DNA of 64,000 nt from a virus (Duplodnaviria; Heunggongvirae; Uroviricota; Caudoviricetes). This document shows, in pieces, positions 1,989 through 20,060 of this stretch. The stretch's first letter is position 1. The number at the start of each line of letters is the position of its first letter. The stretch is taken from IMG/VR virus record IMGVR_UViG_3300027963_000034, positions 58,552 through 122,551 of that record; one strand, written 5' to 3'. The notes under the pieces are model-generated. The model saw only the letters and a program-made list of their open reading frames with translations, was not told the origin of the DNA and did no database searches. Made by a program: the position numbers and the translations under genes.

Positions 1989-4544
1989 TTAAAAACTAAA
2001 AAACTTTTTTGCAGTTTGAGCTTCAGTTGATGCTTTTTCCCATTTTAATGCGGTATAAAAATCATCTAACTTATTTTCTAATTCTGCTTTAAATATCATA
2101 TCTCTATCAATATATTTTTCAATAAAATCCATAATCTCATTAGGGTCATTATAATCTTTAAAAGCCAACCCTTCTAATCCTAATGGGTTATTTCTTAAAT
2201 ATACCCACTTAACTTTATCACCATCTCTAATTGGTTCATTCTTAAATGGACAATTAAAGAATTTTAATAATCGGTTATATGCAATTCCGGCTTTAACATG
2301 GGCAGGTGTTCCTTTCTCAAATAACCCAACAGGCTTACCTCTTTCCCATTTACCATTATCATACTTACTTAATTCTTTGATTGCTCCACTCTTTGCTATT
2401 TTGTTTACAGGCAAAGTAATCATACTCTTTTTGAACTCTAATAATTTTGTATCAACATATTCATTATCTTTACCCATAAGAATATCTTTCAACATACCAC
2501 TCATATAATCTTGGAATGCTTTGGGAAATGATGAACGAACTACATCTAAACCTTTAACATCTAACTTATCACATTTGATGCCATTCTTTAATACCATCCA
2601 TTGTGCATATCTTTTCTTTGCTACCCAAAATCCCGCTTTACTGATATATTCCTTTTTGATTTCAAATCTATGTTTTTCTTTTGGTATAAAAAAGAATCTT
2701 TCAGCAAGTATATCATAAAATTTATTTAAAAAAGATTGAGTTTCTTCTGCTATTATATTAACTTCCTGTGCCATTCTTTCTTCATCAAATTCTTTATATT
2801 CTGGGTATCTATGCTTTACCAATGGTTCTGCCATCATATAAATTGAATCAGTGTCAATATACACATTGTAATCTTCTTTTGTATTTAATTCTTTCCAATA
2901 TTTTATATTAGCCATTTCAGCCGTTTTTTTAATAACCGTCTGACCGGTAATAGTAACTGCTTCGGCGTTATCTATATCATAAAAACGAAATGCCGGTAAA
3001 CCTAACACACCATACATTGAGTTCAATAGAATTTTTTGTACCAATTGTCTTTTTGCGTAAAAATCATATTTTTCAGTATCACCTGCTTCTCCGTATTTTT
3101 TTTCTAACTTACGGAATTCAACTCTTTGTTTAAACCATGTATCTAAAATATCTGCAATCAATCCGGGTTTGTCTTGTGTATAAAGAACTCCGTTTGCAGC
3201 TACACCCAAATTACTATCTTTAATAACTTCTTTTAGTTCCTGAGTCGTATATTCGTATTTATCACCATCCTTGCCAATTAACTTATAAGTTGTATCTAAT
3301 CCTTTGATGTTTGCCTCTGCGTCCCAATTTTCAATCTTACCAACCTTTGTTTCAGGTGAGATGTTTAGAGTCATAATAATTGATGGATATAGTGATGTTA
3401 AATCCAAATCATAAATCCAATCATACTTTCCAACAATCGGTTCTTTTACATATGCACCGATAAACTTCTCCTGGTCGTTATCTCTCAATGCTTGCATTCT
3501 TTCTTTTCTATCCTTTGGTTTATTTGGGGCTACTAATCCTTTTTTCTTGAGATATGCTAAACAAGCTCCTTCTAAATATTTTGAAGAGTATATATAATCC
3601 TCGTATGGTACAAATCCGGCGTGACAAATCGCTCTACACAAATCTACGAATTGAAGTTTTTCATCCATTGCTACAACTAAGTCTACATCGACAATATTAT
3701 ATTCAATAAACTTTTCTAAGTCATTTTCAAACAAATCATCCAAACTTCCTTCATACTCAATCTTACCTCTACCCAATTCTTTTGTTGCGATGTGGTTCAA
3801 TGTATATGAACTTTCTAAACCATAATTATAGTTTTTATATAAGTTGATATAATCTAAAATAGATACACCACCAAAACTCCATTTATTTCTATAAGGTGAA
3901 TAAAAGGTTTGACCTATTGGAGATAATCTTTTTGCATGACCTTCGCCACATACATTTTTGATACGATTGTAAAGATATGGGATATCAAAGAAATCTATAT
4001 TCCATCCTGTAAGAATAGACGGGTTAATTTCTTCGTAATAGTTAAGAAATGCAAGTAATAAATTTTTCTCGTTATCGTAAATGTGAACAGCAACTTCTCT
4101 CCCATCTTTACTAAATGTTTTTCCATTATTTTTAATTTTTTTAGTTTTATCTAAAACAAATACATCAAATAATTTTGTAGCCCCATCGTGAGATGCGATG
4201 GCTGTTATTTCATTTTCTGCTTTTTCGGTACTTGGTAGTCCTGATATCATTTCTACCTCAATATCAAAAGTCATTACTCTATGACCTGTTGATGGTAAAT
4301 CCGAATCATACATATCAACTAATACTCTCGTTGTTTCAGGAACATCAGATTCAAATAAATCTTCTGCGTCATCTTTTTCCCATTTACTAATTCTAGTTAA
4401 ACGGTCACCATTCATTGAAAGGTGTTGACCCGATTGGTCTTTCTTATACGCATACTTTCGGTATGGTAATGTAAAATATCCCTTCGTGTCGTCCCATAAA
4501 TGAATTAAATTCTTCTGCCTCTCGTAAAATATATTTTGATACAT
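1989..4544 (-). CDS. Family B DNA polymerase (T4 gp43-like)
   Basis: Exo motifs FDIE, GWNIDFFD, YNIVD; Pol motifs DLTSLYPS, KILLNSMYG, YIDTDS, KKRY. Confidence 0.97.
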   Translation of the reverse strand: MYQNIFYERQKNLIHLWDDTKGYFTLPYRKYAYKKDQSGQHLSMNGDRLTRISKWEKDDAEDLFESDVPETTRVLVDMYDSDLPSTGHRVMTFDIEVEMISGLPSTEKAENEITAIASHDGATKLFDVFVLDKTKKIKNNGKTFSKDGREVAVHIYDNEKNLLLAFLNYYEEINPSILTGWNIDFFDIPYLYNRIKNVCGEGHAKRLSPIGQTFYSPYRNKWSFGGVSILDYINLYKNYNYGLESSYTLNHIATKELGRGKIEYEGSLDDLFENDLEKFIEYNIVDVDLVVAMDEKLQFVDLCRAICHAGFVPYEDYIYSSKYLEGACLAYLKKKGLVAPNKPKDRKERMQALRDNDQEKFIGAYVKEPIVGKYDWIYDLDLTSLYPSIIMTLNISPETKVGKIENWDAEANIKGLDTTYKLIGKDGDKYEYTTQELKEVIKDSNLGVAANGVLYTQDKPGLIADILDTWFKQRVEFRKLEKKYGEAGDTEKYDFYAKRQLVQKILLNSMYGVLGLPAFRFYDIDNAEAVTITGQTVIKKTAEMANIKYWKELNTKEDYNVYIDTDSIYMMAEPLVKHRYPEYKEFDEERMAQEVNIIAEETQSFLNKFYDILAERFFFIPKEKHRFEIKKEYISKAGFWVAKKRYAQWMVLKNGIKCDKLDVKGLDVVRSSFPKAFQDYMSGMLKDILMGKDNEYVDTKLLEFKKSMITLPVNKIAKSGAIKELSKYDNGKWERGKPVGLFEKGTPAHVKAGIAYNRLLKFFNCPFKNEPIRDGDKVKWVYLRNNPLGLEGLAFKDYNDPNEIMDFIEKYIDRDMIFKAELENKLDDFYTALKWEKASTEAQTAKKFFSF

Positions 4545-4552
4545 ACATTGTT

Positions 4553-6124
4553 TTATGGTTTATAAAATATAAAGATTGGTTCGTATTTATACGATTGCCC
4601 TTCTATCTTCATACTATTCTTTGCTTTTGATAAATCCATCCCCGTCATTGGACTCATTGTCATTCTTAATTTTCCTTTATATTCACATCCTAATTCAGTT
4701 AGGATATCGATACTATCTTGCTCCAAAGTAAAAAATTTATCAGGTCCTACTTTTATATCAGCAATATTCCAGCAAATGTATCTATCATTTTTAAGATATT
4801 CAAATGCGGTTGTTAGAGTAGGTCTTAAAAAGCCATCTCTCCAACTTTCATATGAATTAAATTTCTTAAAAGATTGCGTTTCATCATCCGAATATCTTTC
4901 TCTATCAAAATATGGTGGTGAAGTAAATACAAAATCTAATTTACCTTTATACTTTTGGAATCTTTCATCTAAATGAATAATTTCCGAACCTGTTGTAAAA
5001 ATTTCATAACTATTTGCATGTCCCCAAAATGGGTTTGATGCTCCAGGTACTTTATTATTAAAAAATTCTGCAAGATATTCGTATCTAGTTTTACCAATTT
5101 CAGGTATTTGATTTTCTGTATTAGGGTCATTTCCTATGTAATGTATATTCCTATCATCGACACTTAATGCACCTAAAATTCTCCCACCCCATCCAGCCGA
5201 TGGGTCGTAAATATTAATCTGCTTTTGGTCTTTAATATGATTTGTAAATCTTTGATAAAGATATTTTGCAGTTAATGGTGGAAAATTTACTGCTGCTTGC
5301 GTTCCCATACCAATACGGAATGCCGCAGTAGCTTCAGGAAATATAGTTTGTCCTAATGGGTAGATTTTAATTTGAATTGGTTGTTTTGTAATCTCATATA
5401 AATTATCAATATTTTCACCCCAATCTGCGGTTTTAAGTGACGATATATTTTCATATTTTAATATTCCCGCTTTATAAAGGTCTTTAACTTCTTGCGCGGT
5501 TATTGGTGGTGAAGGAACTTTACTATCAGCCTGTGATAAACAAAATGAATGTCCTTCCAAATTATCACCTTCTACCCACTTTTCAATCCACTCTTTACCA
5601 CTTTGTATATGTGAATTATGAAATTCAGGATTACCCAAATGTAATGTTTTAGAAAAACGATACATACCATCTTGCCTAGTTAACCTATTCATTTGTTTGA
5701 TAAATTCGGGAAGATACGCATCATTCGAAAACACATCGTAAATAGATGGTTTTGGTTTATCGTAAGTAGAACCACCGATTCCTGTTTTATACATTGCAGG
5801 AAAGAATTGATTTACAGGAGTAGCAAATTTATTAAAGTTAAAGATGACTTCATTTCCTTCGTCATCTTTTTCTTCAAATTCATTTACCTTATAAGTTTGC
5901 AGTCTAGAAAATTGTTCAATCATTTCACTTTCATCAACCCCAATTCTTGGAGGTGCTCCGGTTTCATTCCATTTTCTAACTGCTAATTCACGAAAGAATG
6001 CCACCCACTCTCCAAACTTTGGAAATGGCATTTTAAGAACATCCTCGTATTTTAAGTTTACTTCTGGAGAGTAAATCCAATCGTTCTTTTCGTAAAAATA
6101 TTTTTTAGGATAATTAAAACTCAT
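4553..6124 (-). CDS. DNA amino-methyltransferase-like protein (N4-C/N6-A type), paralogue 3
   Basis: Motif I YDPSAGWGGR, motif IV FTSPPYF, NIAD, C-terminal YEPIFIF. Confidence 0.8.
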   Translation of the reverse strand: MSFNYPKKYFYEKNDWIYSPEVNLKYEDVLKMPFPKFGEWVAFFRELAVRKWNETGAPPRIGVDESEMIEQFSRLQTYKVNEFEEKDDEGNEVIFNFNKFATPVNQFFPAMYKTGIGGSTYDKPKPSIYDVFSNDAYLPEFIKQMNRLTRQDGMYRFSKTLHLGNPEFHNSHIQSGKEWIEKWVEGDNLEGHSFCLSQADSKVPSPPITAQEVKDLYKAGILKYENISSLKTADWGENIDNLYEITKQPIQIKIYPLGQTIFPEATAAFRIGMGTQAAVNFPPLTAKYLYQRFTNHIKDQKQINIYDPSAGWGGRILGALSVDDRNIHYIGNDPNTENQIPEIGKTRYEYLAEFFNNKVPGASNPFWGHANSYEIFTTGSEIIHLDERFQKYKGKLDFVFTSPPYFDRERYSDDETQSFKKFNSYESWRDGFLRPTLTTAFEYLKNDRYICWNIADIKVGPDKFFTLEQDSIDILTELGCEYKGKLRMTMSPMTGMDLSKAKNSMKIEGQSYKYEPIFIFYKP

Positions 6125-6843
6125 TATGCAGTTAATTGTACTTCAACTAAATAATATTTTGCAGTAAAGTCATCAATTTTAAATTCAACGTGGGCTAGGC
6201 CAGATGTTGAAACTTTCAATACAACCGATGTTGCTTCTTTATTTGCTGTTAAAATTTCTTTTAAGTATTTTGCTGAAAAAGAAATTGGTTTAATTTCGTT
6301 TGTAAAACTCTTATCAACTGAAAATACAATTCTATTTGAGTTTACATTTGAATAACCTAATACAATTTTTAATTCACCATTCTCGGTTAAGACAGTAAAT
6401 GTATCAACTTCGCTTAATGCGTTTTTAGCTTTGATGAACTTTTCAATAAACTTACCATCAAATCCAATGTTTACATCGAAATCAGGAAGTTTTTTCAAAT
6501 CCGGAACCGAAGGGATTACTGCTAAATCCGCTAATTGAAATTGTAATTTAGTGTCATCACTTTTAATTACTAAATTAACCGATTTGCCATCAATTTGTTG
6601 AGTTTCTAATTCAATATCATCACCGGCTACCGATAATAACTTTGATAACGCAGATGTGGTATACACACCCAATTCTGGAGATGTAAATGTGAAATTATCT
6701 AATTCAATTTCACCTAAAACTGTCTTATCATCAGAGATAAAACGAGTTATTAATTTGTTATCACCTGCTTTCCAAGCAACTGATTCTACTAATCCTGCCA
6801 AACTATACTTTTGGATGAATCGTGTAACTTTTGTTTTGTTCAT
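6124..6843 (-). CDS. Sliding clamp (gp45/PCNA-like)
   Basis: 239 aa, two-domain size, FSAKYL and C-terminal AKYYLV similar to PCNA/gp45; near PolB and the clamp loader. Confidence 0.75.
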   Translation of the reverse strand: MNKTKVTRFIQKYSLAGLVESVAWKAGDNKLITRFISDDKTVLGEIELDNFTFTSPELGVYTTSALSKLLSVAGDDIELETQQIDGKSVNLVIKSDDTKLQFQLADLAVIPSVPDLKKLPDFDVNIGFDGKFIEKFIKAKNALSEVDTFTVLTENGELKIVLGYSNVNSNRIVFSVDKSFTNEIKPISFSAKYLKEILTANKEATSVVLKVSTSGLAHVEFKIDDFTAKYYLVEVQLTA

Positions 6844-6871
6844 ATTTTTTTGTTTTAAATTTTATGTTTGT

Positions 6872-6903
6872 TAAATATACTACTTTTTTTTTATAATACC
6901 AAA
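6872..6903 (-). promoter_or_regulatory. Bacteroidota sigma70-type promoter
   Basis: Minus strand TTTG-N20-TATATTTA upstream of clamp gene. Confidence 0.65.
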
Positions 6904-8121
6904 TTATATTTTTTTCCAAATCCAAATGGGTTCACCAAATGCATTATTTTTATTGAGTTCTGTTTTTTCTTTAAGTTCTTCTGCAAAATATTCAGATTTA
7001 GCATTTCCTGCACCGCCGGAATTAAACCTTTTTGTCATTTCCATTCCAATACAACCCATATATTCTAATCCCTCTGATTTAATAAAGTCATTCATAGCAT
7101 TTACAATATCAACATACCCCTTATCTGGTGCTGAAAATACATCTGCAATATTAACGGCTAATAACCCACCCTTCTTTAAGGTAGGGATTATTTTTTTAAT
7201 TGTTTTATGTAGGAAATTAGTATTCCAGTCATCTATCTTTTTATAGCGTAAATAACTTTGAGTATCATGTGTGGAATACTTTTCAGTATTGAAGTATGGA
7301 GGTGAAGTGAAGATTGTATCAAAAAAGTTTTCATATTTGGAATAATCCACATCTTCTGCCGGTAACTTTATTAGTTCCACAGTTTTAGGATTTTCAAAAA
7401 ATGTTTTGTGTTTCTGATAAAATTCTATTTGGTTTTCATAATTTGGGTGATTATCTAAATTAGGGTCAATGCCCACATAATGTTTACCCGTTTCACTTGC
7501 AAAGAACCCACATAACCTATCACCCCAACCTGCGGAAAAATCTAATACATTCTCACTCTGAAATCTGTCATAAAATGCTTTAGCGATTACAGGTTTAAAT
7601 TGGGATGCTACATACTTTCTTAATGTAGTAGCCATCTTTAGTGTTTCCTTATTTACATCAGTTAGGACTTGTTCCAATGTGAAGAATGCCCGAACTATGG
7701 TTTTTATACCATTAACTGTCTGCCATGTCTTCCAACCTGATGGTGTTCTTGACCAATCTACCTTCCATCGATTTTCTATGTGGAATGGATTAGATGCGTT
7801 ATTACCAACATTCGTTCTTTTAAAATAGTAATTACTACTATCAAATGTAAGTGGATATGTAGATTCCCTTTCATTACGCGGAAACCATTCTCCTTCCACT
7901 AAAATATCCGGCCACCAAGTACCCTTTAACTTTTTATATGCATCAATAGTTTCTTGTTCTGTAATAATAGGAATAGGTGGTGGATAAGTATGTAATACTT
8001 CTGATAATGTTTCTACTATCTCTTCCTTTTCAAATGTATTTAGTATATGTTTCCACTCCTCCTTATCAATATTGATATAGGGGGTCATTCCATAAAACTT
8101 TTTGAAATATTCTTTTATCAT
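6904..8121 (-). CDS. DNA amino-methyltransferase-like protein, paralogue 2
   Basis: SQFKP, LDFSAGWGDR, GIDP, FTSPPYF, NIAD, EPIWIW. Likely start MIKEYF at 8121. Confidence 0.82.
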   Translation of the reverse strand: MIKEYFKKFYGMTPYINIDKEEWKHILNTFEKEEIVETLSEVLHTYPPPIPIITEQETIDAYKKLKGTWWPDILVEGEWFPRNERESTYPLTFDSSNYYFKRTNVGNNASNPFHIENRWKVDWSRTPSGWKTWQTVNGIKTIVRAFFTLEQVLTDVNKETLKMATTLRKYVASQFKPVIAKAFYDRFQSENVLDFSAGWGDRLCGFFASETGKHYVGIDPNLDNHPNYENQIEFYQKHKTFFENPKTVELIKLPAEDVDYSKYENFFDTIFTSPPYFNTEKYSTHDTQSYLRYKKIDDWNTNFLHKTIKKIIPTLKKGGLLAVNIADVFSAPDKGYVDIVNAMNDFIKSEGLEYMGCIGMEMTKRFNSGGAGNAKSEYFAEELKEKTELNKNNAFGEPIWIWKKI

Positions 8122-8125
8122 TAAA

Positions 8126-9355
8126 TTATATTTTTCTCCAAATCCAAACCGGTTCACAAAATGTTTTATCTGCAGCTTCTCTTGCTTTTTCTAAAGCCTC
8201 TTCGGTATATCTTCCTTCATCACCTTCTATTATTGAGGCAGCTCCTGCACTACCAGGTCTTTTGGCCATTTCCATACCCAAACATCCTTCATATTCAGCG
8301 CCTAATGTTGAAATAAAATCATTCATTGGGTTACATATTTCTTTATATCCCTTACCATCTCCTTGTGAACTAGCGTATACATCTGCTATATTAATGGCTA
8401 GATATCCTCCTTTCTTGATTGTTGGCCAAACATTTGAAATTGCTTTATGTAAAAATAATTTATTCCAATCATCTATATTTTTATATCTTACCCAACTTTG
8501 AGTATCATCATATGAGTATCGTTCTACATTAAAATATGGAGGTGAACTGAATACAATATCAAAATGCTCATTATACATTGATAAATCGGCATCTTCCGCC
8601 GGTGATTCTATAAAATCAGCTTTCTTTTCAGTTTCAAAAAATCCATTATGTTTTGTATAAAACTCAGCCTGTTGTTTATAAATTGGATGATTTTCTTTTC
8701 TAGGGTCTATCCCAACATAGTGTTTGCCCTTTTCACTGGCAAAAAACCCACACATCCTATCTCCCCAACCTGCCGATATGTCTAATACATTTTCACATTC
8801 TAAATAATCATATAAAGCTTTCGCAACATTAGGTTTAAATTGAGAACATATATACTTTCTCAAACTTAAACATACTCTCAAAGCTGCTTTATCTATTTTA
8901 TCAAATTTAAGAGTATATAATCCACCCATTAAAGTTGTCATGAATTCTTTACTTTCCCAAGTTCTTTTAGGACCTGGAGAAACTGTCCCATCAACACTCC
9001 AACGATTTGCTTGTTGAAAAAAATTAGATGCTTCATTTCCAGTATTTAATCTTCTAACATATTGTTGTTTACCTCTAAATGATAGAGGATAATTACTTTC
9101 TGATGCTTTTCTTGGAAACCATTCACCTTCGGTAAATAATTCATGCCATCTCGTTCCTTTTAATTTAAGATATTCTTTTCTGGCTTCATCCTCGGTTATT
9201 TCAGCATATGGTAAAGAATATTCCATACAAACATCAGATAGTGAATCTTTTACATCTTCCCTATTAAATGTTTCTTTTATATATGACCACTCACTCTCAT
9301 TTATATGAAGGTATGGTGTCATATTTTTAAATTTATCAAAATATTCTAAATACAT
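8126..9355 (-). CDS. DNA amino-methyltransferase-like protein, paralogue 1
   Basis: SQFKP, LDISAGWGDR, GIDP, FSSPPYF, NIAD, EPVWIW; colinear with the adjacent paralogue. Confidence 0.82.
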   Translation of the reverse strand: MYLEYFDKFKNMTPYLHINESEWSYIKETFNREDVKDSLSDVCMEYSLPYAEITEDEARKEYLKLKGTRWHELFTEGEWFPRKASESNYPLSFRGKQQYVRRLNTGNEASNFFQQANRWSVDGTVSPGPKRTWESKEFMTTLMGGLYTLKFDKIDKAALRVCLSLRKYICSQFKPNVAKALYDYLECENVLDISAGWGDRMCGFFASEKGKHYVGIDPRKENHPIYKQQAEFYTKHNGFFETEKKADFIESPAEDADLSMYNEHFDIVFSSPPYFNVERYSYDDTQSWVRYKNIDDWNKLFLHKAISNVWPTIKKGGYLAINIADVYASSQGDGKGYKEICNPMNDFISTLGAEYEGCLGMEMAKRPGSAGAASIIEGDEGRYTEEALEKAREAADKTFCEPVWIWRKI

Positions 9356-9873
9356 ACTGTCTCAATATTTTTATCAGCAACCAATCTTAATCTAAAAACT
9401 ATTCCAGGAATAACTCCATCTTTTTTACTTGTCCAAAATATATCAGAATCTTTTACAAATCCATTTCTATAATAGAAATTAACTGCTTTATCATTATACT
9501 TCCTAACCGTCAAAAACAAATTTTCTGCATGTTGTGATTTACAATATTGTATAAAATCATTTAAAACTATTTTAGCGTTTCCATTGTGTTGGTCTATATT
9601 CGCAATTTGATGCAATATATAATCTCCTTTCTTTTTATAAGTAGTAGCGTTTCTACTCATTTTACCATTACTACCATATCTACCAAAGGTAACCACAACA
9701 CCATCTTGTAGTATTAATCCACCTTTTTCAATATATTTTTCCAGCTTAAAACTTTGTTTATACAAGTGTGGAAATATTTCTGGATACAAATCAATAATTG
9801 TAGAGGCTTGATTTAATGCCTCTATCATTTCAGTTGTACCTTTTTCTGCTTTTATAAAATTAAGCATATTCAA
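9346..9873 (-). CDS. GNAT-family acetyltransferase
   Basis: LHQIA...QHNGNAK (motif A-like) and LTVRKYNDKAVNFYYRNGF (motif B). Confidence 0.8.
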   Translation of the reverse strand: MNMLNFIKAEKGTTEMIEALNQASTIIDLYPEIFPHLYKQSFKLEKYIEKGGLILQDGVVVTFGRYGSNGKMSRNATTYKKKGDYILHQIANIDQHNGNAKIVLNDFIQYCKSQHAENLFLTVRKYNDKAVNFYYRNGFVKDSDIFWTSKKDGVIPGIVFRLRLVADKNIETVCI

Positions 9874-11317
9874 AAAATTTATTTAAGTTTAATTTGTCTT
9901 TATACAAATATAAGGAATTTAATTGAGATTTCAAAATATCTTTTCTAGCTTCCATCATATCACCAGTTCTTGCACCTTTTGCAAAAAATACTTTTGGTCT
10001 ATATAATAATTCATCGGAAATCTCACCTTTGAATGCTGCTCTTAATAATGGTTTCATATGACCATTTTCTTTCTGATATAAAGGTGGAATGTTTAAAGTA
10101 TATTCTACAAATGGTCTCCAACTATATGGTGTACGAACCTCAACAGTCCCACCCCACATGATAGATTGATTTGTAGTTAAGAAATTTGTTTTATGAACAT
10201 CTTCTACTAATTTTCTTCTAGCTTTATCATAATCTTCCGGTCTCCAATGGAACGCTTGAATATGTCCGTAACTTCCCCAAATTTCATCGGATAAATCACC
10301 GCTAAATACAACTTTGAATCCTAATTCATTTATTTTTTTACCCAATGCAATTTGAGCTATAGCAGAACCTACATTTTGCCAACGAGATTGTTCAATAACA
10401 TAAAGAGTTTCATCAATCGAATCTAATACATCTTGTTCGGTTAGTATAATTTCATGCAATTTTACACCGAATTCTTTTGCAGCAATTCTGGCGTATTTAA
10501 TGTCGTCGTTCTTTGTATCACCATCTCCCATTGAAACCACAAATGCTTCAATATTAGGGTTTATTTTTGAAAGTATATAAGTTGTTATCACCGAATCAAT
10601 ACCCCCACTTAAAATGGTGCAAATTGGGACATCAGATATCATTTTAACTTTAACCGCTTCCTCTAATAATTTTCTTATATTCTTAACAATAGTGTCTCTA
10701 TCATCATTTATAATTTCATTTGGAAGTTTATAATAAGTTTTAATTGAATGTTCTAATGTTTTATAATTGTATTCTATATAAGTTCCAGGATAAACTGCTT
10801 TAACTTGTTTTTCATACAATTCCGATATTGGTAATCCTTTCTTTTCCGAACAAAACACCAATTTACCAGTATTATCAATTGCATACCATAATGGTAATTC
10901 TCCAACATAATCTCTAACAACAAATACTTTATTAATCTTACTATCAACTATACAAAATGAAAACATACCATCCAATAGTTCAAATGATTTAGTTCCCAAT
11001 TCACAATACGCATTTAATATAATTTCCGTATCTGATTTTGTTATAAATTTTGTTTTTAGTGATTTTTTTAATTCAGTTGTTTCGGTACTATCCCAAAGTT
11101 CACCATTATAAACAATACAAACGGTTTTATCTTCGTTCCACATTGGTTGATTTGCAGCCGAAGATAAGTCCTGTATTGATAATCTATTATGTCCAACAAA
11201 GACACTATCTATTTCATCTACAATAGAAGCATCTCTACCTCTATGAATTATTTTATTTAATTGGGTATGGGTTTGCTCAAAAGAAGTAAACCAATTACCA
11301 CCTATTATTCCACACAT
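9860..11317 (-). CDS. asnB: Asparagine-synthetase-B-like glutamine amidotransferase
   Basis: N-terminal MCGI (Ntn Cys), HRG, HNRLSI, NGEL, SDTE, PP-loop LSGGIDS, SGDLSDE, EVRTPY. Confidence 0.88.
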   Translation of the reverse strand: MCGIIGGNWFTSFEQTHTQLNKIIHRGRDASIVDEIDSVFVGHNRLSIQDLSSAANQPMWNEDKTVCIVYNGELWDSTETTELKKSLKTKFITKSDTEIILNAYCELGTKSFELLDGMFSFCIVDSKINKVFVVRDYVGELPLWYAIDNTGKLVFCSEKKGLPISELYEKQVKAVYPGTYIEYNYKTLEHSIKTYYKLPNEIINDDRDTIVKNIRKLLEEAVKVKMISDVPICTILSGGIDSVITTYILSKINPNIEAFVVSMGDGDTKNDDIKYARIAAKEFGVKLHEIILTEQDVLDSIDETLYVIEQSRWQNVGSAIAQIALGKKINELGFKVVFSGDLSDEIWGSYGHIQAFHWRPEDYDKARRKLVEDVHKTNFLTTNQSIMWGGTVEVRTPYSWRPFVEYTLNIPPLYQKENGHMKPLLRAAFKGEISDELLYRPKVFFAKGARTGDMMEARKDILKSQLNSLYLYKDKLNLNKFFEYA

Positions 11318-11321
11318 ATAA

Positions 11322-11353
11322 CTAATTTACGAAAAATAATTGGATTTACCAAC
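11322..11353 (-). promoter_or_regulatory. Bacteroidota sigma70-type promoter for the asnB-GNAT-MTase unit
   Basis: Minus strand GTTG-N20-TAAATTAG ending 4 nt before the ATG. Confidence 0.5.
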
Positions 11354-11616
11354 TATTTAATTGCTTCATTTATCGCATTTACATACGCTATTTTAGATGA
11401 AAGACCACTAAATCTTTGTAACTCAATTCCATTTTTTTCAATTATCACAGTCGGTACTGAACGAACTCCGTATTGTTCCGTTACTTCACTATACTCATCA
11501 ATATCGTATTCTTCAAATTTTACATTTGAAAAATTACCTTTAATTTCATTCATTACCGGTGCTAATGCTCTACAAGGACCACACCATACTGCGCTAAACT
11601 TTTTGACTGTTACCAT
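11353..11616 (-). CDS. trxA: Thioredoxin
   Basis: WCGPC active site, VRSVPT cis-Pro motif. Confidence 0.95.
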   Translation of the reverse strand: MVTVKKFSAVWCGPCRALAPVMNEIKGNFSNVKFEEYDIDEYSEVTEQYGVRSVPTVIIEKNGIELQRFSGLSSKIAYVNAINEAIK

Positions 11617-11800
11617 TTTCTTTTTGTTTTATATTTTTATTTTCTTTTATATGTTTTGGTTCATAAGGACAATGACGGCACTTATTACCACAACAATAAC
11701 CTCTTGCCATATGATACTCTGGTGTAAATACCACTTTACCATTTTCCAAATAGTATAATGTTTCATCTTTATTATTTAACTTCACACGCACCTCCAGCAC
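11594..11800 (-). CDS. Small Cys-rich protein (DUF5522-like)
   Basis: VFT..YH..RGYCCGNKCRHCPY; GTG start overlaps the nrdJ 3' end and its exact position is uncertain. Confidence 0.7.
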   Translation of the reverse strand: MLEVRVKLNNKDETLYYLENGKVVFTPEYHMARGYCCGNKCRHCPYEPKHIKENKNIKQKENGNSQKV

Positions 11801-13628
11801 AAGCTACTTCTCCTGATAAATCGGTGTTATCTTCAAGTTCAATAACTTTACTTAAGTCAACATCATTTAATGTTTTCATTAGTTCATCATACTTTTCTTT
11901 TGTACAATCTTCAAATGGTGCTTGAATGTAAGTTCCACCGTCGTAAGGTAATACCGAAAGTCCGTTGTAATATTCTTTATTTTCCCACATCCACGCGCCA
12001 ACTGCATCCCATTCATGTTCTCTAATAGAAATAGTTGCAGATACATTATGAGAGTTATTTCCAGTTCTATGACCTGGTTTAATCCATTCACCATGTACTC
12101 TTTTAACTCTTTCCAATAATTGGATAGGTGATTCGGTTCTAAAAATTGCGTTATCTGGTGCTTTTTGTGGAATACCAATTACTGCCGTATCATGTGGTCT
12201 AAAATATTCATCTTCTACTAATTCTGGATGATTTAATAATAAGTGAGAATATATTGATTCATTTTTACCAACTCTAACTCTTCTAATATAAAAATCATTA
12301 TGCCAAGCGTGAATACCACTACTAGTCCCCAATGTTAAAGATGTAGTTCCAGCTGGTTTAACTGTCGTAGTTCTTGCGGAATGGTTAATTCCCATTATAT
12401 CCGCTAATCTTTTATTTTCTTCTTTAACTACCTTTGCTGCATCTTTCATATTTAATTTCAATACTGCGCCGCTTCCGATGCCTGTCATAGATACACCAAT
12501 AAGTGCATCCTTTTCAGTTGTTCTTTGCCAGATTGGACGAAGGTAATGGAAATCGGTATAACCTGCTTGTAATGTTCCGATGAATGATGCTGCTTTAACT
12601 CTTGCATTCAAATCATCCTGGTCAACTACATCACTTACATTCACTTCACATAAGTTACAAAATTGGAAAGGTCTTAATGCAATCTCACAACAAGGATTAG
12701 TTCCCCAATCTTTATCATTTGATAAATAGATACCAGGTTCACCTGCACCACTTGCTTCAATTCGTTTCCAAAGGTCTAAAAAATATGTTTTTGTAATTTT
12801 ATGTCTCATCAAAACTGCTGAATTATTTGCTCTACCTCTTTGTGGATTTGTTTCCCACCATGCACCACTCTTACAACTAATCATTTGTTCGTCATTTGCA
12901 GAGAACAATGAAATTAATGCAGCTCTACGGATACCACCTGCTAATACTGCATCTGCAATATGACAAATGATATCATGCACTTCAATCGGTTTTAATTTAT
13001 CACCGTCTTTGTGTGAATCAAATATACCTTCAATCTTAATCAAGCATTCTTTTAATGGTTGAGGTCCTGGTGCTTTACCACCTGATGTAATCAATCTTGC
13101 ACCCTTTGCTCTAATATCTCTAAAATCAAATTGAGGTTTGCTCCCGCCAAAGAAATACGCTTTAATCAATACCGAAACTGCATCAGCCCATCCTTCGATA
13201 GAATCTCCAATAAGGAATCTTCTTGTTTTATCTGGATTTGGTTTTCTAATTTCAGGAAGTGCATCAACGTGATGTTTTTGTACTGAATAACCAACACCTG
13301 TTCCGCCTAAAAGTAAGAACATGATTTCAGAGAATACTCTCCAATCATCGGCAGGTGCAAATGCACAATTGTAAATTCTATTTGGACTAATTTCAATTGG
13401 TTTACCTGCAAACTGCATTGAACGCATTGATGGTAATACCTTTTTATCATATACAAATTTATAATTCTCTCTAATTTCTTCTTCTAATTGTGGGTACTTT
13501 TTAATATGCATATCCATATTACGGGTAACCAACTCTTCCCATGTTTCTCTTCTTTTTAATTCCGGCCTGAATTTCGCGTACTTCATATAGACCGTAATGT
13601 CAGATAAAATTCTTTGTGAAATGTCCAT
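11772..13628 (-). CDS. nrdJ: Class II (adenosylcobalamin-dependent) ribonucleotide reductase, monomeric type
   Basis: NCAF, GGTGVG, GGIRRAA, TNPCCEI, TTVKPAGT, C-terminal ACAGGACE; no NrdB partner. Confidence 0.9.
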   Translation of the reverse strand: MDISQRILSDITVYMKYAKFRPELKRRETWEELVTRNMDMHIKKYPQLEEEIRENYKFVYDKKVLPSMRSMQFAGKPIEISPNRIYNCAFAPADDWRVFSEIMFLLLGGTGVGYSVQKHHVDALPEIRKPNPDKTRRFLIGDSIEGWADAVSVLIKAYFFGGSKPQFDFRDIRAKGARLITSGGKAPGPQPLKECLIKIEGIFDSHKDGDKLKPIEVHDIICHIADAVLAGGIRRAALISLFSANDEQMISCKSGAWWETNPQRGRANNSAVLMRHKITKTYFLDLWKRIEASGAGEPGIYLSNDKDWGTNPCCEIALRPFQFCNLCEVNVSDVVDQDDLNARVKAASFIGTLQAGYTDFHYLRPIWQRTTEKDALIGVSMTGIGSGAVLKLNMKDAAKVVKEENKRLADIMGINHSARTTTVKPAGTTSLTLGTSSGIHAWHNDFYIRRVRVGKNESIYSHLLLNHPELVEDEYFRPHDTAVIGIPQKAPDNAIFRTESPIQLLERVKRVHGEWIKPGHRTGNNSHNVSATISIREHEWDAVGAWMWENKEYYNGLSVLPYDGGTYIQAPFEDCTKEKYDELMKTLNDVDLSKVIELEDNTDLSGEVACAGGACEVK

Positions 13629-18862: not shown

Positions 18863-19087
18863 TTATTTTTGGAGGTTTTCTACCTTGCGATTTAGATAAA
18901 ATATAGCTTTTTTTAAGTCTTCCAGTTCTTTTTTGGGGTCTTTTTTACCTGCTCTTGCCACATATTTAACGACATTGAACAAATATGCATCTTTATCCAA
19001 TCCCCATGCTTCGCATACTTTAATTACTTCGTATGGATTGTCTACTCCCCCATAATGTTGAGGGCCGTTAACCATTTCTGCTGCCAT
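18863..19087 (-). CDS. DUF3310 / T7 gp1.7-like protein
   Basis: VN.P.HY, E.I, NVVKYV.RAGKK, EDLKKA..YL. Confidence 0.85.
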   Translation of the reverse strand: MAAEMVNGPQHYGGVDNPYEVIKVCEAWGLDKDAYLFNVVKYVARAGKKDPKKELEDLKKAIFYLNRKVENLQK

Positions 19088-19752
19088 TATATTAAATCTT
19101 TTATACTACTATTTAAATTTGAAGGTCCTTCAATTCTTTGTAAAATTACAATTGAGCCAACATTTCCTCTAATATTACTATATGAATAAAATCTATATTC
19201 ATCATGATTTTTTAAAAATTCAAAAACTGCTAATTGCATATCTTTTAACATATAAAAATCATCAACCATTATAAATTTTGGTTTCATTTGAGCGGTGATT
19301 TTCATTTCATTATAAAGGTACTCAAATGTATGTGTACTATCTAGCCAAATTAAATCCCATTCAATATTAGCCTGTTTACATTCGTTCAAATGTTCTAAAC
19401 TATGTATATTTCTATAAATAACTTTATTATCATCATAATAATCATTTATAAATCCAACACATCTTGCAGAGTGGTTATCTTGATGGTTATCACAAGTGTA
19501 TAATCTAAAATCATCTAAACTTTCATAACAAGTATAACTAAATGAACCATAGTTTGTTCCTGTTTCTAAAATGTTATATGGTTTAACTTCCATCAAAAAT
19601 TCTCTAATAAAAACATTACCTCTTTTTGAATTTTCTAAATCACCTTCGGTATATCCATCTATACTACCAGCGTTACCACCCCATCCCATCCTATTATTAA
19701 GTGATTCGTTTATTAAAAAATCATAAACAGGTCCTTGAAATATATTTTTCAT
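19087..19752 (-). CDS. Class I SAM-dependent methyltransferase (Methyltransf_24-like)
   Basis: ILETGT..G.S, DLIWLDSTH, VDD; likely start MKNIF at 19752. Confidence 0.72.
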   Translation of the reverse strand: MKNIFQGPVYDFLINESLNNRMGWGGNAGSIDGYTEGDLENSKRGNVFIREFLMEVKPYNILETGTNYGSFSYTCYESLDDFRLYTCDNHQDNHSARCVGFINDYYDDNKVIYRNIHSLEHLNECKQANIEWDLIWLDSTHTFEYLYNEMKITAQMKPKFIMVDDFYMLKDMQLAVFEFLKNHDEYRFYSYSNIRGNVGSIVILQRIEGPSNLNSSIKDLI

Positions 19753-19757
19753 ATTAT

Positions 19758-20060
19758 TTATTTTTTCCATATTTGATACCATTTTTTCTTTTTAACATCT
19801 GGTTTAGCAAATGGTTGGGTATTATCCCATACATTCACTATGCCACCATATCTAACCATCATCATTTGACAAAATAGCTGATGATATTCGGGTGGTATTT
19901 TATCAAAGTCAGCTTTAATTGATATATCCAAATTTACACTTTTGCCATCTTCAACCAATAATTTTAGTTGGTCTCTCATTTCAATAATCGTACTAGATTT
20001 CATTGTTAGATAACTTGTATCCCCAATGTAATATTCTCCTTCTTTTTGTTTTGGTGCCAT
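19758..20060 (-). CDS. Hypothetical protein
   Basis: 100 aa ORF with operon spacing; ends KKWYQIWKK. Confidence 0.7.
   Translation of the reverse strand: MAPKQKEGEYYIGDTSYLTMKSSTIIEMRDQLKLLVEDGKSVNLDISIKADFDKIPPEYHQLFCQMMMVRYGGIVNVWDNTQPFAKPDVKKKKWYQIWKK

Follow-up and report, generated by a model that had tools for sequence, protein, structure and literature searches.

A 64,000-nt stretch of a Caudoviricetes genome (IMG/VR record IMGVR_UViG_3300027963_000034; 31% G+C), hereafter the window, carries inside its replication module genes for an AsnB-like amidotransferase, a GNAT N-acetyltransferase and three methyltransferase-like proteins with an SPPY motif (MT1, MT2 and MT3), together with a sliding clamp and a family B DNA polymerase (PolB). 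We propose that this phage hypermodifies the bases of its DNA after replication, and that the AsnB-like enzyme and the GNAT carry out tailoring steps at the replisome, beside the SPPY transferases. Built on sequence comparison, this proposal is tentative, and we give it slightly less than even weight. A more specific version, in which an aminocarboxypropyl group derived from S-adenosylmethionine (SAM) would be acetylated and amidated, is a bolder suggestion that we consider unlikely. The idea of a hypermodification system had been raised in a first-pass annotation of this DNA; it gains from an AsnB-like enzyme that departs from asparagine synthetases, from the AsnB-GNAT-SPPY linkage, from published precedents and from shared C-terminal KFF tails. 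No support was found for a sequence likeness to Mom, for a CmoA gene in five complete relatives or for a dedicated promoter.

An AsnB-like enzyme with an altered acceptor site

The AsnB-like protein (positions 9860-11317, minus strand; 485 aa) joins a glutamine amidotransferase to a PP-loop adenylating domain (GATase_6/7 and Asn_synthase, E 3.5e-47). Its best solved relative is Escherichia coli AsnB (1CT9), to which 447 residues align with an E-value of 6e-48. Both proteins have the two-domain architecture, the glutaminase motifs (MCGI.. with Cys1, HRGRDA, LSIQD and YNGEL), an SGGxDS PP-loop, intact as ILSGGIDS in the window, and a lysine that in ..YRPKVFF lies opposite K449. The MCGI, SGGIDS and SGDLSDEIWGSY motifs noticed in the first-pass annotation were all found. 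That annotation had also read the acceptor site as pointing away from aspartate, and the alignment agrees with it: T322-T323-x-R325 of E. coli AsnB is replaced by Q-N-x-G, E348-G349 by D-L, and D384, R387 and K390 by N, T and Q. We take T322, T323, R325, E348, D384 and R387 to be the residues by which AsnB binds aspartate and forms the aspartyl-adenylate.

The protein could be a genuine asparagine synthetase, encoded as an auxiliary metabolic gene: E. coli AsnB is its nearest solved relative, and it passes the broad family model TIGR01536 (284.6 bits vs a cut-off of 267.1). However, it fails the asparagine synthase B model NF006949 (282.7 vs 499 bits), differs at the substrate-site residues, is ~70 residues shorter than the 554-aa E. 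coli enzyme, ends in a PolB-like tail and is always paired with a GNAT. Judging from its sequence, a plain asparagine synthetase is very unlikely, and the least credible of the explanations considered here.

The substitutions are not a general feature of related phage proteins. Among isolates, the closest AsnB-like protein is that of Streptomyces phage TurkishDelight, which is 30% identical to the window protein. This form and AsnB', a form paired with a pyridoxal phosphate (PLP) enzyme beside MT1 in sister phages, both retain E348-G349 and R387; the D-L pair and R387T are therefore peculiar to the GNAT-linked type. In a small maximum-likelihood tree the window type is sister to one AsnB' lineage (support 100/99). 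The other AsnB' lineage, the TurkishDelight clade and the window type form an unresolved group, outside which E. coli AsnB falls with weak support (72/76).

AsnB and GNAT are strictly linked and stay near an SPPY transferase gene

The co-occurrence of these genes suspected in the first-pass annotation held up in a neighbourhood survey of 80 IMG/VR loci with this AsnB type (65-96% identity; freshwater and marine). In every locus that continues past AsnB, a GNAT gene comes next after a few bases at most, and an MT1-type gene follows the pair directly or within ~4.5 kb. The linkage of AsnB, GNAT and MT1 persists while PolB and the clamp lie upstream or downstream according to lineage. The exception is a marine locus, L064, where two canonical PF01555 methylases (7480-8211 and 8211-9074; E ~1e-42) replace MT1 between AsnB-GNAT and PolB.

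A second survey of 80 loci, selected by MT1 (61-88% identity), revealed three arrangements. AsnB and GNAT lie beside MT1 in 27 loci (type A). In a further 17 (type B), MT1 has as its neighbours the diverged AsnB' and a fold-II PLP enzyme, to which a 2-hydroxyacid dehydrogenase and a 756-aa protein may be added; in another type-B variant they are accompanied by a P-loop-GNAT protein and a protein weakly similar to thymidylate synthase. The remaining loci (type C) carry neither set within 10 kb of MT1 and typically read PolB-clamp-MT1. From these three states we conclude that MT1 is the conserved core and that the AsnB sets are exchangeable additions. Such a pattern fits a base handle with interchangeable tailoring enzymes, and it is also compatible with a plain methyltransferase beside a variable slot.

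Under the latter explanation, which we regard as possible if on the unlikely side, the SPPY proteins would be ordinary N6-adenine/N4-cytosine methyltransferases with an anti-restriction role. AsnB and GNAT would be an unrelated pair, acting on a metabolite, glycan or protein, that occupies a variable spot of the replication module. MT1 indeed occurs alone in many relatives, and the cargo between thioredoxin and MT1 or PolB varies among them and includes homing-endonuclease-like genes. Phage AsnB-like genes are moreover not always DNA-directed, since that of Synechococcus phage S-SCSM1 lies inside a glycosyltransferase island. Yet an unrelated pair would hardly be expected to be inseparable and to stay beside an amino-methyltransferase gene through rearrangements, or to be represented by two diverged AsnB lineages that both lie beside MT1.

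Several other genes were observed around MT1. The GNAT-MT1 gap of some marine relatives holds 500-530-aa proteins (L051:12602-14140, L058:6365-7966 and L071:12014-13591) that have a GIY-YIG domain or a C-terminal HNH domain, one of the latter with a weak match to GmrSD_N/DUF262 as well; judged by these domains, their role may be that of homing endonucleases or of nucleases dependent on modification. Between MT1 and the weak thymidylate-synthase-like gene of one type-B locus lies a 390-aa protein (L099:11238-12410) whose N-terminal half is a P-loop NTPase and whose C-terminal half is a GNAT, a layout reminiscent of ATP-dependent nucleic-acid acetyltransferases. In relatives without AsnB, MT1 is directly followed by a 186-aa 2-oxoglutarate-Fe(II) oxygenase (L146:11227-11787) or by a 392-aa Asp/Asn-hydroxylase-like cupin (L137:11222-12400), either of which may be a further tailoring option at this locus.

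AsnB and PolB share a C-terminal KFF tail

PolB ends in ..AQTAKKFFSF in the window and in ..[KE]KFFxF throughout its clade, including the nearest isolate, Microcystis phage Mel-JY01 (PolB identity 49%). The AsnB-like protein of the window ends in ..LNLNKFFEYA, and K-F-[FW] stands 1-5 residues from the end in 29/29 distinct AsnB tails of relatives, with variable flanks. Similar endings (..EKFFQF, ..EKFFNI, ..EQFFKY and the like) close the GNAT in 10 of 26 distinct tails, from marine and other sublineages. The type-B P-loop-GNAT protein of L099 ends in ..NKFFQF, and a 167-aa open reading frame (ORF) between the clamp and MT1 of a type-C locus ends in ..RKFFNFEKS. The MT proteins have motif-free ends that terminate in a strand of the fold. 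Among 52 likely genes of the window, [KRQ]F[FW] occurs within the last nine residues of PolB and AsnB only, at an expected rate of ~0.004 per protein; a strict KFF ending is likewise confined to PolB and AsnB among the 211 likely genes of a complete 209-kb relative.

In the family B polymerases of T4 and RB69, the extreme C-terminus binds the sliding clamp. By analogy, the ..KKFFSF tail of PolB is presumed to bind the clamp of this phage, and the KFF tail suggests that AsnB, and in many lineages the GNAT, is brought to the clamp and so to DNA. Why a metabolic enzyme should carry such a tail, as AsnB does and as the GNAT does in sister lineages, is difficult to see, which speaks against an unrelated pair. 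It also suggests a simple route by which base-modifying enzymes could be coupled to replication. Two further proteins of a complete type-A relative have aromatic-pair ends (G001 82661-82963, ..KKWYQFWKK; 95223-96059, ..GLDFFYPSI) and may be extra clamp partners.

The GNAT resembles acetyl-CoA-dependent enzymes

The GNAT (9346-9873, minus strand; 175 aa as called) is RimI/NAT-like and matches Acetyltransf_1 with 25.9 bits (cut-off 20.7). Among characterised proteins it is closest to RimI, Ard1-type N-alpha-acetyltransferases and polyamine acetyltransferases, and among solved structures to RimI and Ard1. We found 58 homologues, all within this phage clade, and no carrier among cultured phages. 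The homologues are 173 aa long and start at an ATG two codons inside the called start. Across 24 of them, the beta5-alpha4 motif V-R-x-x-N-x-x-A-x-x-F-Y-x-x-x-G-F is kept with its usual tyrosine (motif B consensus R/K-x-x-N-x-x-A-x-x-F-Y-x-x-x-G-F) and the Q-x-x-G-x-A loop is loosely kept.

A GNAT that acts on DNA is known: gp48 of phage PaMx11 was shown experimentally to acetylate a primary amine on a DNA base (PMC8989533). The parallel first drawn for the window protein was with Mom of phage Mu, and it found no backing in the sequence. BLASTP gave no alignment to Mom better than E 5, a distant relation at the level of the fold not having been tested, and Mom does not follow the logic that had been assumed: as a single enzyme, it uses Gly-tRNA and an on-base rearrangement to make N6-carbamoylmethyladenine (Silva et al. 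2026, PMC13219725). What the two systems would have in common is a GNAT-fold enzyme that takes part in forming an adduct with an amide group on an exocyclic DNA amine. They differ in that the window GNAT resembles an acetyl-CoA enzyme and in that the proposed pathway would leave amide formation to a distinct enzyme of AsnB type.

One may still ask whether the GNAT could be a Mom-like aminoacyl-tRNA-dependent transferase that adds an acidic amino acid, whose free carboxylate AsnB would amidate, while the MT proteins only methylate. Mom itself has the GNAT fold and transfers glycine from Gly-tRNA to N6-adenine (PMC13219725), the GNAT carries a PolB-like tail in sister lineages, and unusual SAM chemistry would not be required. 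We nevertheless find this highly improbable: no Mom similarity was detected, and the closest relatives are acetyl-CoA-dependent N-alpha- and polyamine acetyltransferases.

Three SPPY paralogues with an amino-methyltransferase fold

MT1 (8126-9355, minus strand; 409 aa) consists of an N-terminal domain and a class I SAM-transferase domain, as judged from motifs, alignments and an AlphaFold2 model. MT2 (6904-8157, minus strand; 417 aa as called from GTG) is 52% identical to it, and MT3 (4553-6124, minus strand; 523 aa), more distantly related and larger in its N-terminal region, 26%. All three have D-x-S-A-G-W-G-[DG]-R followed, ~75 residues on, by [ST]SPPYF (D-I-S-A-G-W-G-D-R and S-S-P-P-Y-F in MT1). 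The shared motifs and these identities confirm that the three are paralogues, as the first-pass annotation had it. MT3 adjoins the clamp in most relatives, and MT2 is found in some relatives only. A profile search returned 6184 clusters of relatives, 661 of them at E <= 1e-30, most with the same two-domain length. Both motifs are nearly invariant (FTSPPYF in 122/150 of the best relatives), and the family is almost wholly viral in the ESM Atlas; no carrier of full-length MT1 was found among cultured phages.

Of PF01555, only the motif-IV half is matched, by MT2 and MT3 (27.0 and 27.8 bits; cut-off 26.7); MT1 had no PF01555 hit in Pfam, none of the three had an NCBIfam hit, and MT1 and MT3 had no match at E <= 1 among sequences of solved structures. 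The AlphaFold2 model of MT1 (predicted local distance difference test, pLDDT, 93.8) shows a class I SAM-dependent fold in the C-terminal domain. Its nearest solved folds (Foldseek, VIA-align) are Trm11, TrmN, Trm14 and METTL5 (Z 15-16), RNA guanine-N2 or adenine-N6 methyltransferases whose Z scores are little above those of many other methyltransferases. CmoB and TYW2 (Z 13.1 for the latter) are among the neighbours and are not distinctive. By motif and modelled fold, the MT proteins are amino-group transferases, and the group transferred is not readable from the fold. MT1 residues 1-170 (window 8846-9355) form a mostly helical, widely conserved domain (pLDDT 95.6 when folded alone), for which the best fold match reached Z 4.0 and no Pfam family was found in 75 members; in view of the model, it may be a new substrate-recognition domain.

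MT domains also occur in fusions. One is joined to a fold-II PLP enzyme (P0225), and proteins of ~1000-1180 aa combine a GNAT, a TTL-type ATP-grasp ligase and an SPPY MT (P0284, P0296-P0299 and P0307; L171 and L172). That a GNAT, an ATP-dependent ligase and an MT recur within one polypeptide speaks for the three forming a functional unit. Genes for RNA polymerase Rpb2, a kinase and ankyrin proteins accompany P0284 on a giant-virus-like contig, and the TTL-GNAT-MT fusions are possibly protein modifiers, which would favour an AsnB-GNAT pair with no link to DNA. The amino-methyltransferase type of the motifs and fold is likewise what ordinary methylases would have.

Other relatives of the family were noted. 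Proteins of ~2000 aa (P0281-P0283) join mRNA capping enzyme and cap methyltransferase domains to a domain related to the MT1 catalytic domain, which hints that wider relatives include cap-modifying amino-methyltransferases. MT1-family members P0132, P0136 and P0272 have an N-terminal LAGLIDADG endonuclease domain, an intein or a fused homing endonuclease. The distant homologues P0126 and P0225 lie on short contigs, on which no AsnB or GNAT was found.

A proposed route to an acetylated and amidated base

In the proposed hypermodification pathway, an MT paralogue, most likely MT1, would attach a SAM-derived group bearing both a carboxylate and an amine to an exocyclic amino group of a base; 3-amino-3-carboxypropyl would be the most economical choice. 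The GNAT would then acetylate the amine of the adduct with acetyl-CoA, and the AsnB-like enzyme would adenylate the carboxylate and amidate it with glutamine-derived ammonia. The end product would be a bulky uncharged side chain, expected to hinder host nucleases. In sister phages the capping enzymes would be exchanged for the PLP enzyme and the dehydrogenase, giving different end products. We infer the DNA substrate, the non-methyl transfer by an MT paralogue, the identity of the group and the order of the steps. Since carboxylates and aliphatic amines are both lacking from DNA, AsnB and the GNAT would need a prior adduct; a single 3-amino-3-carboxypropyl group would serve both, which would explain their constant pairing with no extra cofactor enzyme. 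Taken as a whole, an SPPY enzyme that places aminocarboxypropyl on an exocyclic amine of DNA, capped at the fork by a clamp-tethered GNAT and AsnB, with the caps swapped in sister phages, is an unlikely scenario, though far from a negligible one.

The closest chemical analogy lies outside DNA. In diphthamide and wybutosine synthesis, a SAM-derived 3-amino-3-carboxypropyl group is transferred and its amine and carboxylate are then tailored (TYW2, Dph2 and Dph6), Dph6 being an amidating enzyme of the ATP-pyrophosphatase type. There, as in our proposal, one SAM-derived group gives an amine and a carboxylate, each of which is then capped. The targets, however, are protein and tRNA, the amine is not acetylated, and homology beyond the general fold was not found. 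Two other chemistries were considered and rejected: direct amination of a base carbonyl by AsnB, as by other PP-loop enzymes, would alter duplex base pairing, and aminopropyl transfer from decarboxylated SAM would leave AsnB without a carboxylate.

On DNA, the order of a carboxyl handle followed by amidation, as the first-pass annotation had supposed it, has a published precedent. CmoA, CmoX and CmoY of Synechococcus phage S-B43 make 5-carboxymethylcytosine and its glycine amide, a methyltransferase-fold enzyme setting the carboxyl handle and an ATP-dependent enzyme amidating it (Yang et al. 2025, PMC12783734). The same authors name a CmoX-associated cluster of AsnB-type ligases, which were not purifiable, and report that no CmoA-linked N6-adenine or N4-cytosine carboxymethyltransferases were found (PMC12783734). 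In TurkishDelight (gp123-125), the AsnB-like gene is flanked by genes for a C5-cytosine methylase and a small CmoA-like methyltransferase, beside ParB-like genes, which is the arrangement given for CmoX-associated AsnB-type ligases (PMC12783734). The window has the same juxtaposition of a methyltransferase-fold enzyme and an ATP-dependent, AMP-forming candidate amide-forming enzyme; its AsnB-like gene is two genes from MT1, much as the amide ligase adjoins the transferase in CmoX-type systems, and the TurkishDelight ligase shares its architecture of an N-terminal nucleophile glutaminase and a PP-loop domain. In contrast, CmoX is a C5-methylase with SPPC and R350, whereas the window transferases have the SPPY amino-methyltransferase fold. 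The window type further differs in its obligate GNAT, its PolB-like tail, the CmoA not found in complete relatives and, with respect to TurkishDelight, the acceptor-site changes E348D, G349L and R387T.

Amidotransferases are also among the genes associated with thymidine hypermodification in phages M6, ViI and PaMx11 (Lee et al., PMC5889632, PMC8989533). These pathways resemble our proposal in the post-replicative tailoring of an amino-acid-like base adduct, the use of a GNAT and the combinatorial, swappable cassettes. They differ in setting the handle on the C5 methyl, which here would be on an exocyclic amine, and in a thymidylate synthase homologue, which was not found in the type-A relatives G001 and G002. 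Handle-then-amidation or acetylation is thus a logic already known from CmoX/CmoY and thymidine hypermodification; we found no account, in the literature examined, of this combination of enzymes, of a partner with an amino-methyltransferase fold, of the altered AsnB site or of polymerase-like tails. Another AsnB-like gene, in Achromobacter phage Motura, lies between QueC and a DpdA-type transglycosylase in a 7-deazaguanine cluster.

Which enzyme could install a handle was examined in the genomes of five relatives that CheckV rates as complete (three type A, two type B). CmoA (TIGR00740) gave nothing at E <= 0.01 in any of the five, from which C5-cytosine methylase (PF00145), DpdA/TGT (PF01702) and MetK are also absent. 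A thymidylate synthase homologue (PF00303) was found in neither of the type-A genomes G001 and G002, 5-hydroxymethyldeoxyuridine kinase and aGPT-Pplase not having been searched for. The third type-A genome, G003, has an ordinary ThyA far from the cassette, and a weak thymidylate-synthase-like gene lies in the type-B cassette of G005 only. Because CmoA, C5-methylase, DpdA and thymidylate-synthase-type handles were not found, the SPPY paralogues are the only base-directed candidates for installing a handle. The relatives also encode PNP_UDP_1-like ORFs, which do not discriminate between routes because such enzymes would handle both S-adenosylhomocysteine and methylthioadenosine.

These results bear on a variant in which an SPPY paralogue would use carboxy-SAM from the host, as it would have to without a phage CmoA, to make carboxymethyl N6-adenine or N4-cytosine. 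AsnB would convert this to carbamoylmethyl, and the GNAT would act separately; on adenine the product would be the same as Mu Mom's, reached by another path. The logic of CmoX and CmoY with its cluster of AsnB-type ligases (PMC12783734), the TurkishDelight trio of C5-methylase, AsnB-like and CmoA-like enzymes and the loose grouping of the window AsnB with the TurkishDelight clade and not with E. coli AsnB (72/76, weak) all lend it some credit. We nonetheless judge this variant improbable: CmoA was not found in the five complete relatives, N6/N4 carboxymethyltransferases linked to CmoA were not found by Yang et al. (PMC12783734), the strictly linked GNAT would be left without a substrate, and the type-A acceptor site departs from the TurkishDelight type at E348, G349 and R387.

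Several observations weigh against the tailoring of an aminocarboxypropylated base, or against a DNA substrate altogether. We know of no precedent for aminocarboxypropyl transfer to DNA. The AsnB-like protein passes TIGR01536, as noted above. The fold and motifs of MT1 are equally compatible with an ordinary N-methyltransferase, and nothing about its N-terminal domain points to binding of DNA, RNA or protein. MT1 lacks AsnB and GNAT in many relatives and therefore has a function of its own. The GNAT of the window has no KFF tail, its own sublineage ending in ..ADKNIETVCI. The TTL-GNAT-MT fusions sit in giant-virus-like contigs, where the substrate could be protein. Finally, synteny inside one phage lineage is partly inherited and not selected.

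If it is correct, the proposal would define a new branch of phage hypermodification, with an exocyclic-amine handle set by an enzyme of amino-methyltransferase fold, an activity of the kind that the authors of the CmoX study sought without finding. An aminocarboxypropylated base would be a first for DNA, and so would the recruitment of base-tailoring enzymes through a polymerase-like clamp-binding tail. The carriers are abundant, with hundreds of protein clusters from lake and marine metagenomes, and a large share of environmental phage DNA could then bear an unrecognised base. This would have a bearing on restriction evasion, on virome sequencing and basecalling, and on the toolbox of DNA-labelling enzymes.

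Gene order in the replication module

Nearly all genes of the region lie on the minus strand. From 5' to 3' on that strand, a gp32-like single-stranded DNA-binding protein, RecA/UvsX, a 5'-3' exonuclease, Cpn10 and a DnaB-like helicase are followed by a class II ribonucleotide reductase (11772-13628), a 68-aa DUF5522 ORF that is kept in most relatives (11594-11800) and thioredoxin (11353-11616, minus strand; family match and synteny), the upstream boundary of the cassette. AsnB, GNAT, MT1, MT2, the clamp, MT3 and PolB come next, and a 250-aa ORF and a dUTPase lie downstream of PolB. The clamp (6124-6843, minus strand; 239 aa) is PCNA/gp45-like, with weak PCNA matches (PCNA_C, E 3.4e-4; NCBIfam sliding clamp, E 8e-7), and PolB (1989-4544, minus strand; 851 aa) matches phrog_262 at E 1e-180. 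All seven cassette genes were found on the minus strand where the first-pass annotation had placed them, and their coordinates bear out its description of AsnB, GNAT, MT1 and MT2 as overlapping or abutting, with the clamp, MT3 and PolB behind them.

Most junctions of the cassette abut or overlap. AsnB and GNAT overlap by 14 nt as called, or by 8 nt if the GNAT starts at its first ATG; GNAT and MT1 overlap by 10 nt, MT1 and MT2 by 32 nt, and the clamp and MT3 by 1 nt, and a gap of 8 nt separates MT3 from PolB. The arrangement of the genes indicates that GNAT is translationally coupled to AsnB and MT1. A promoter of the cassette's own, as first suggested, was not borne out: the 35-nt spacer between thioredoxin and AsnB contains at most a weak sigma-70-like match, and promoter-like sites are not enriched in the region (54 vs 64.7 ± 8.5 in shuffles). 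No terminator was found within the cassette.

In Mel-JY01, two small ORFs separate thioredoxin from PolB, the clamp comes after PolB, and the module holds none of the five enzymes. We conclude that the cassette was added to a conserved replication module. The synteny of clamp and PolB is kept in all relatives and in Mel-JY01. In four marine loci (L071, L072, L073 and L077), PolB matches fall in two or three separated pieces, a sign that inteins, introns or endonuclease genes may interrupt the polymerase gene. The window also encodes, upstream of the replication genes, a CmcI/rhamnosyl O-methyltransferase-like protein (19087-19782; 231 aa) that is unrelated to the SPPY family. DNA of this phage is contained in 24 sequencing runs, all of them freshwater metagenomes, and the phage group is common in lake metagenomes.

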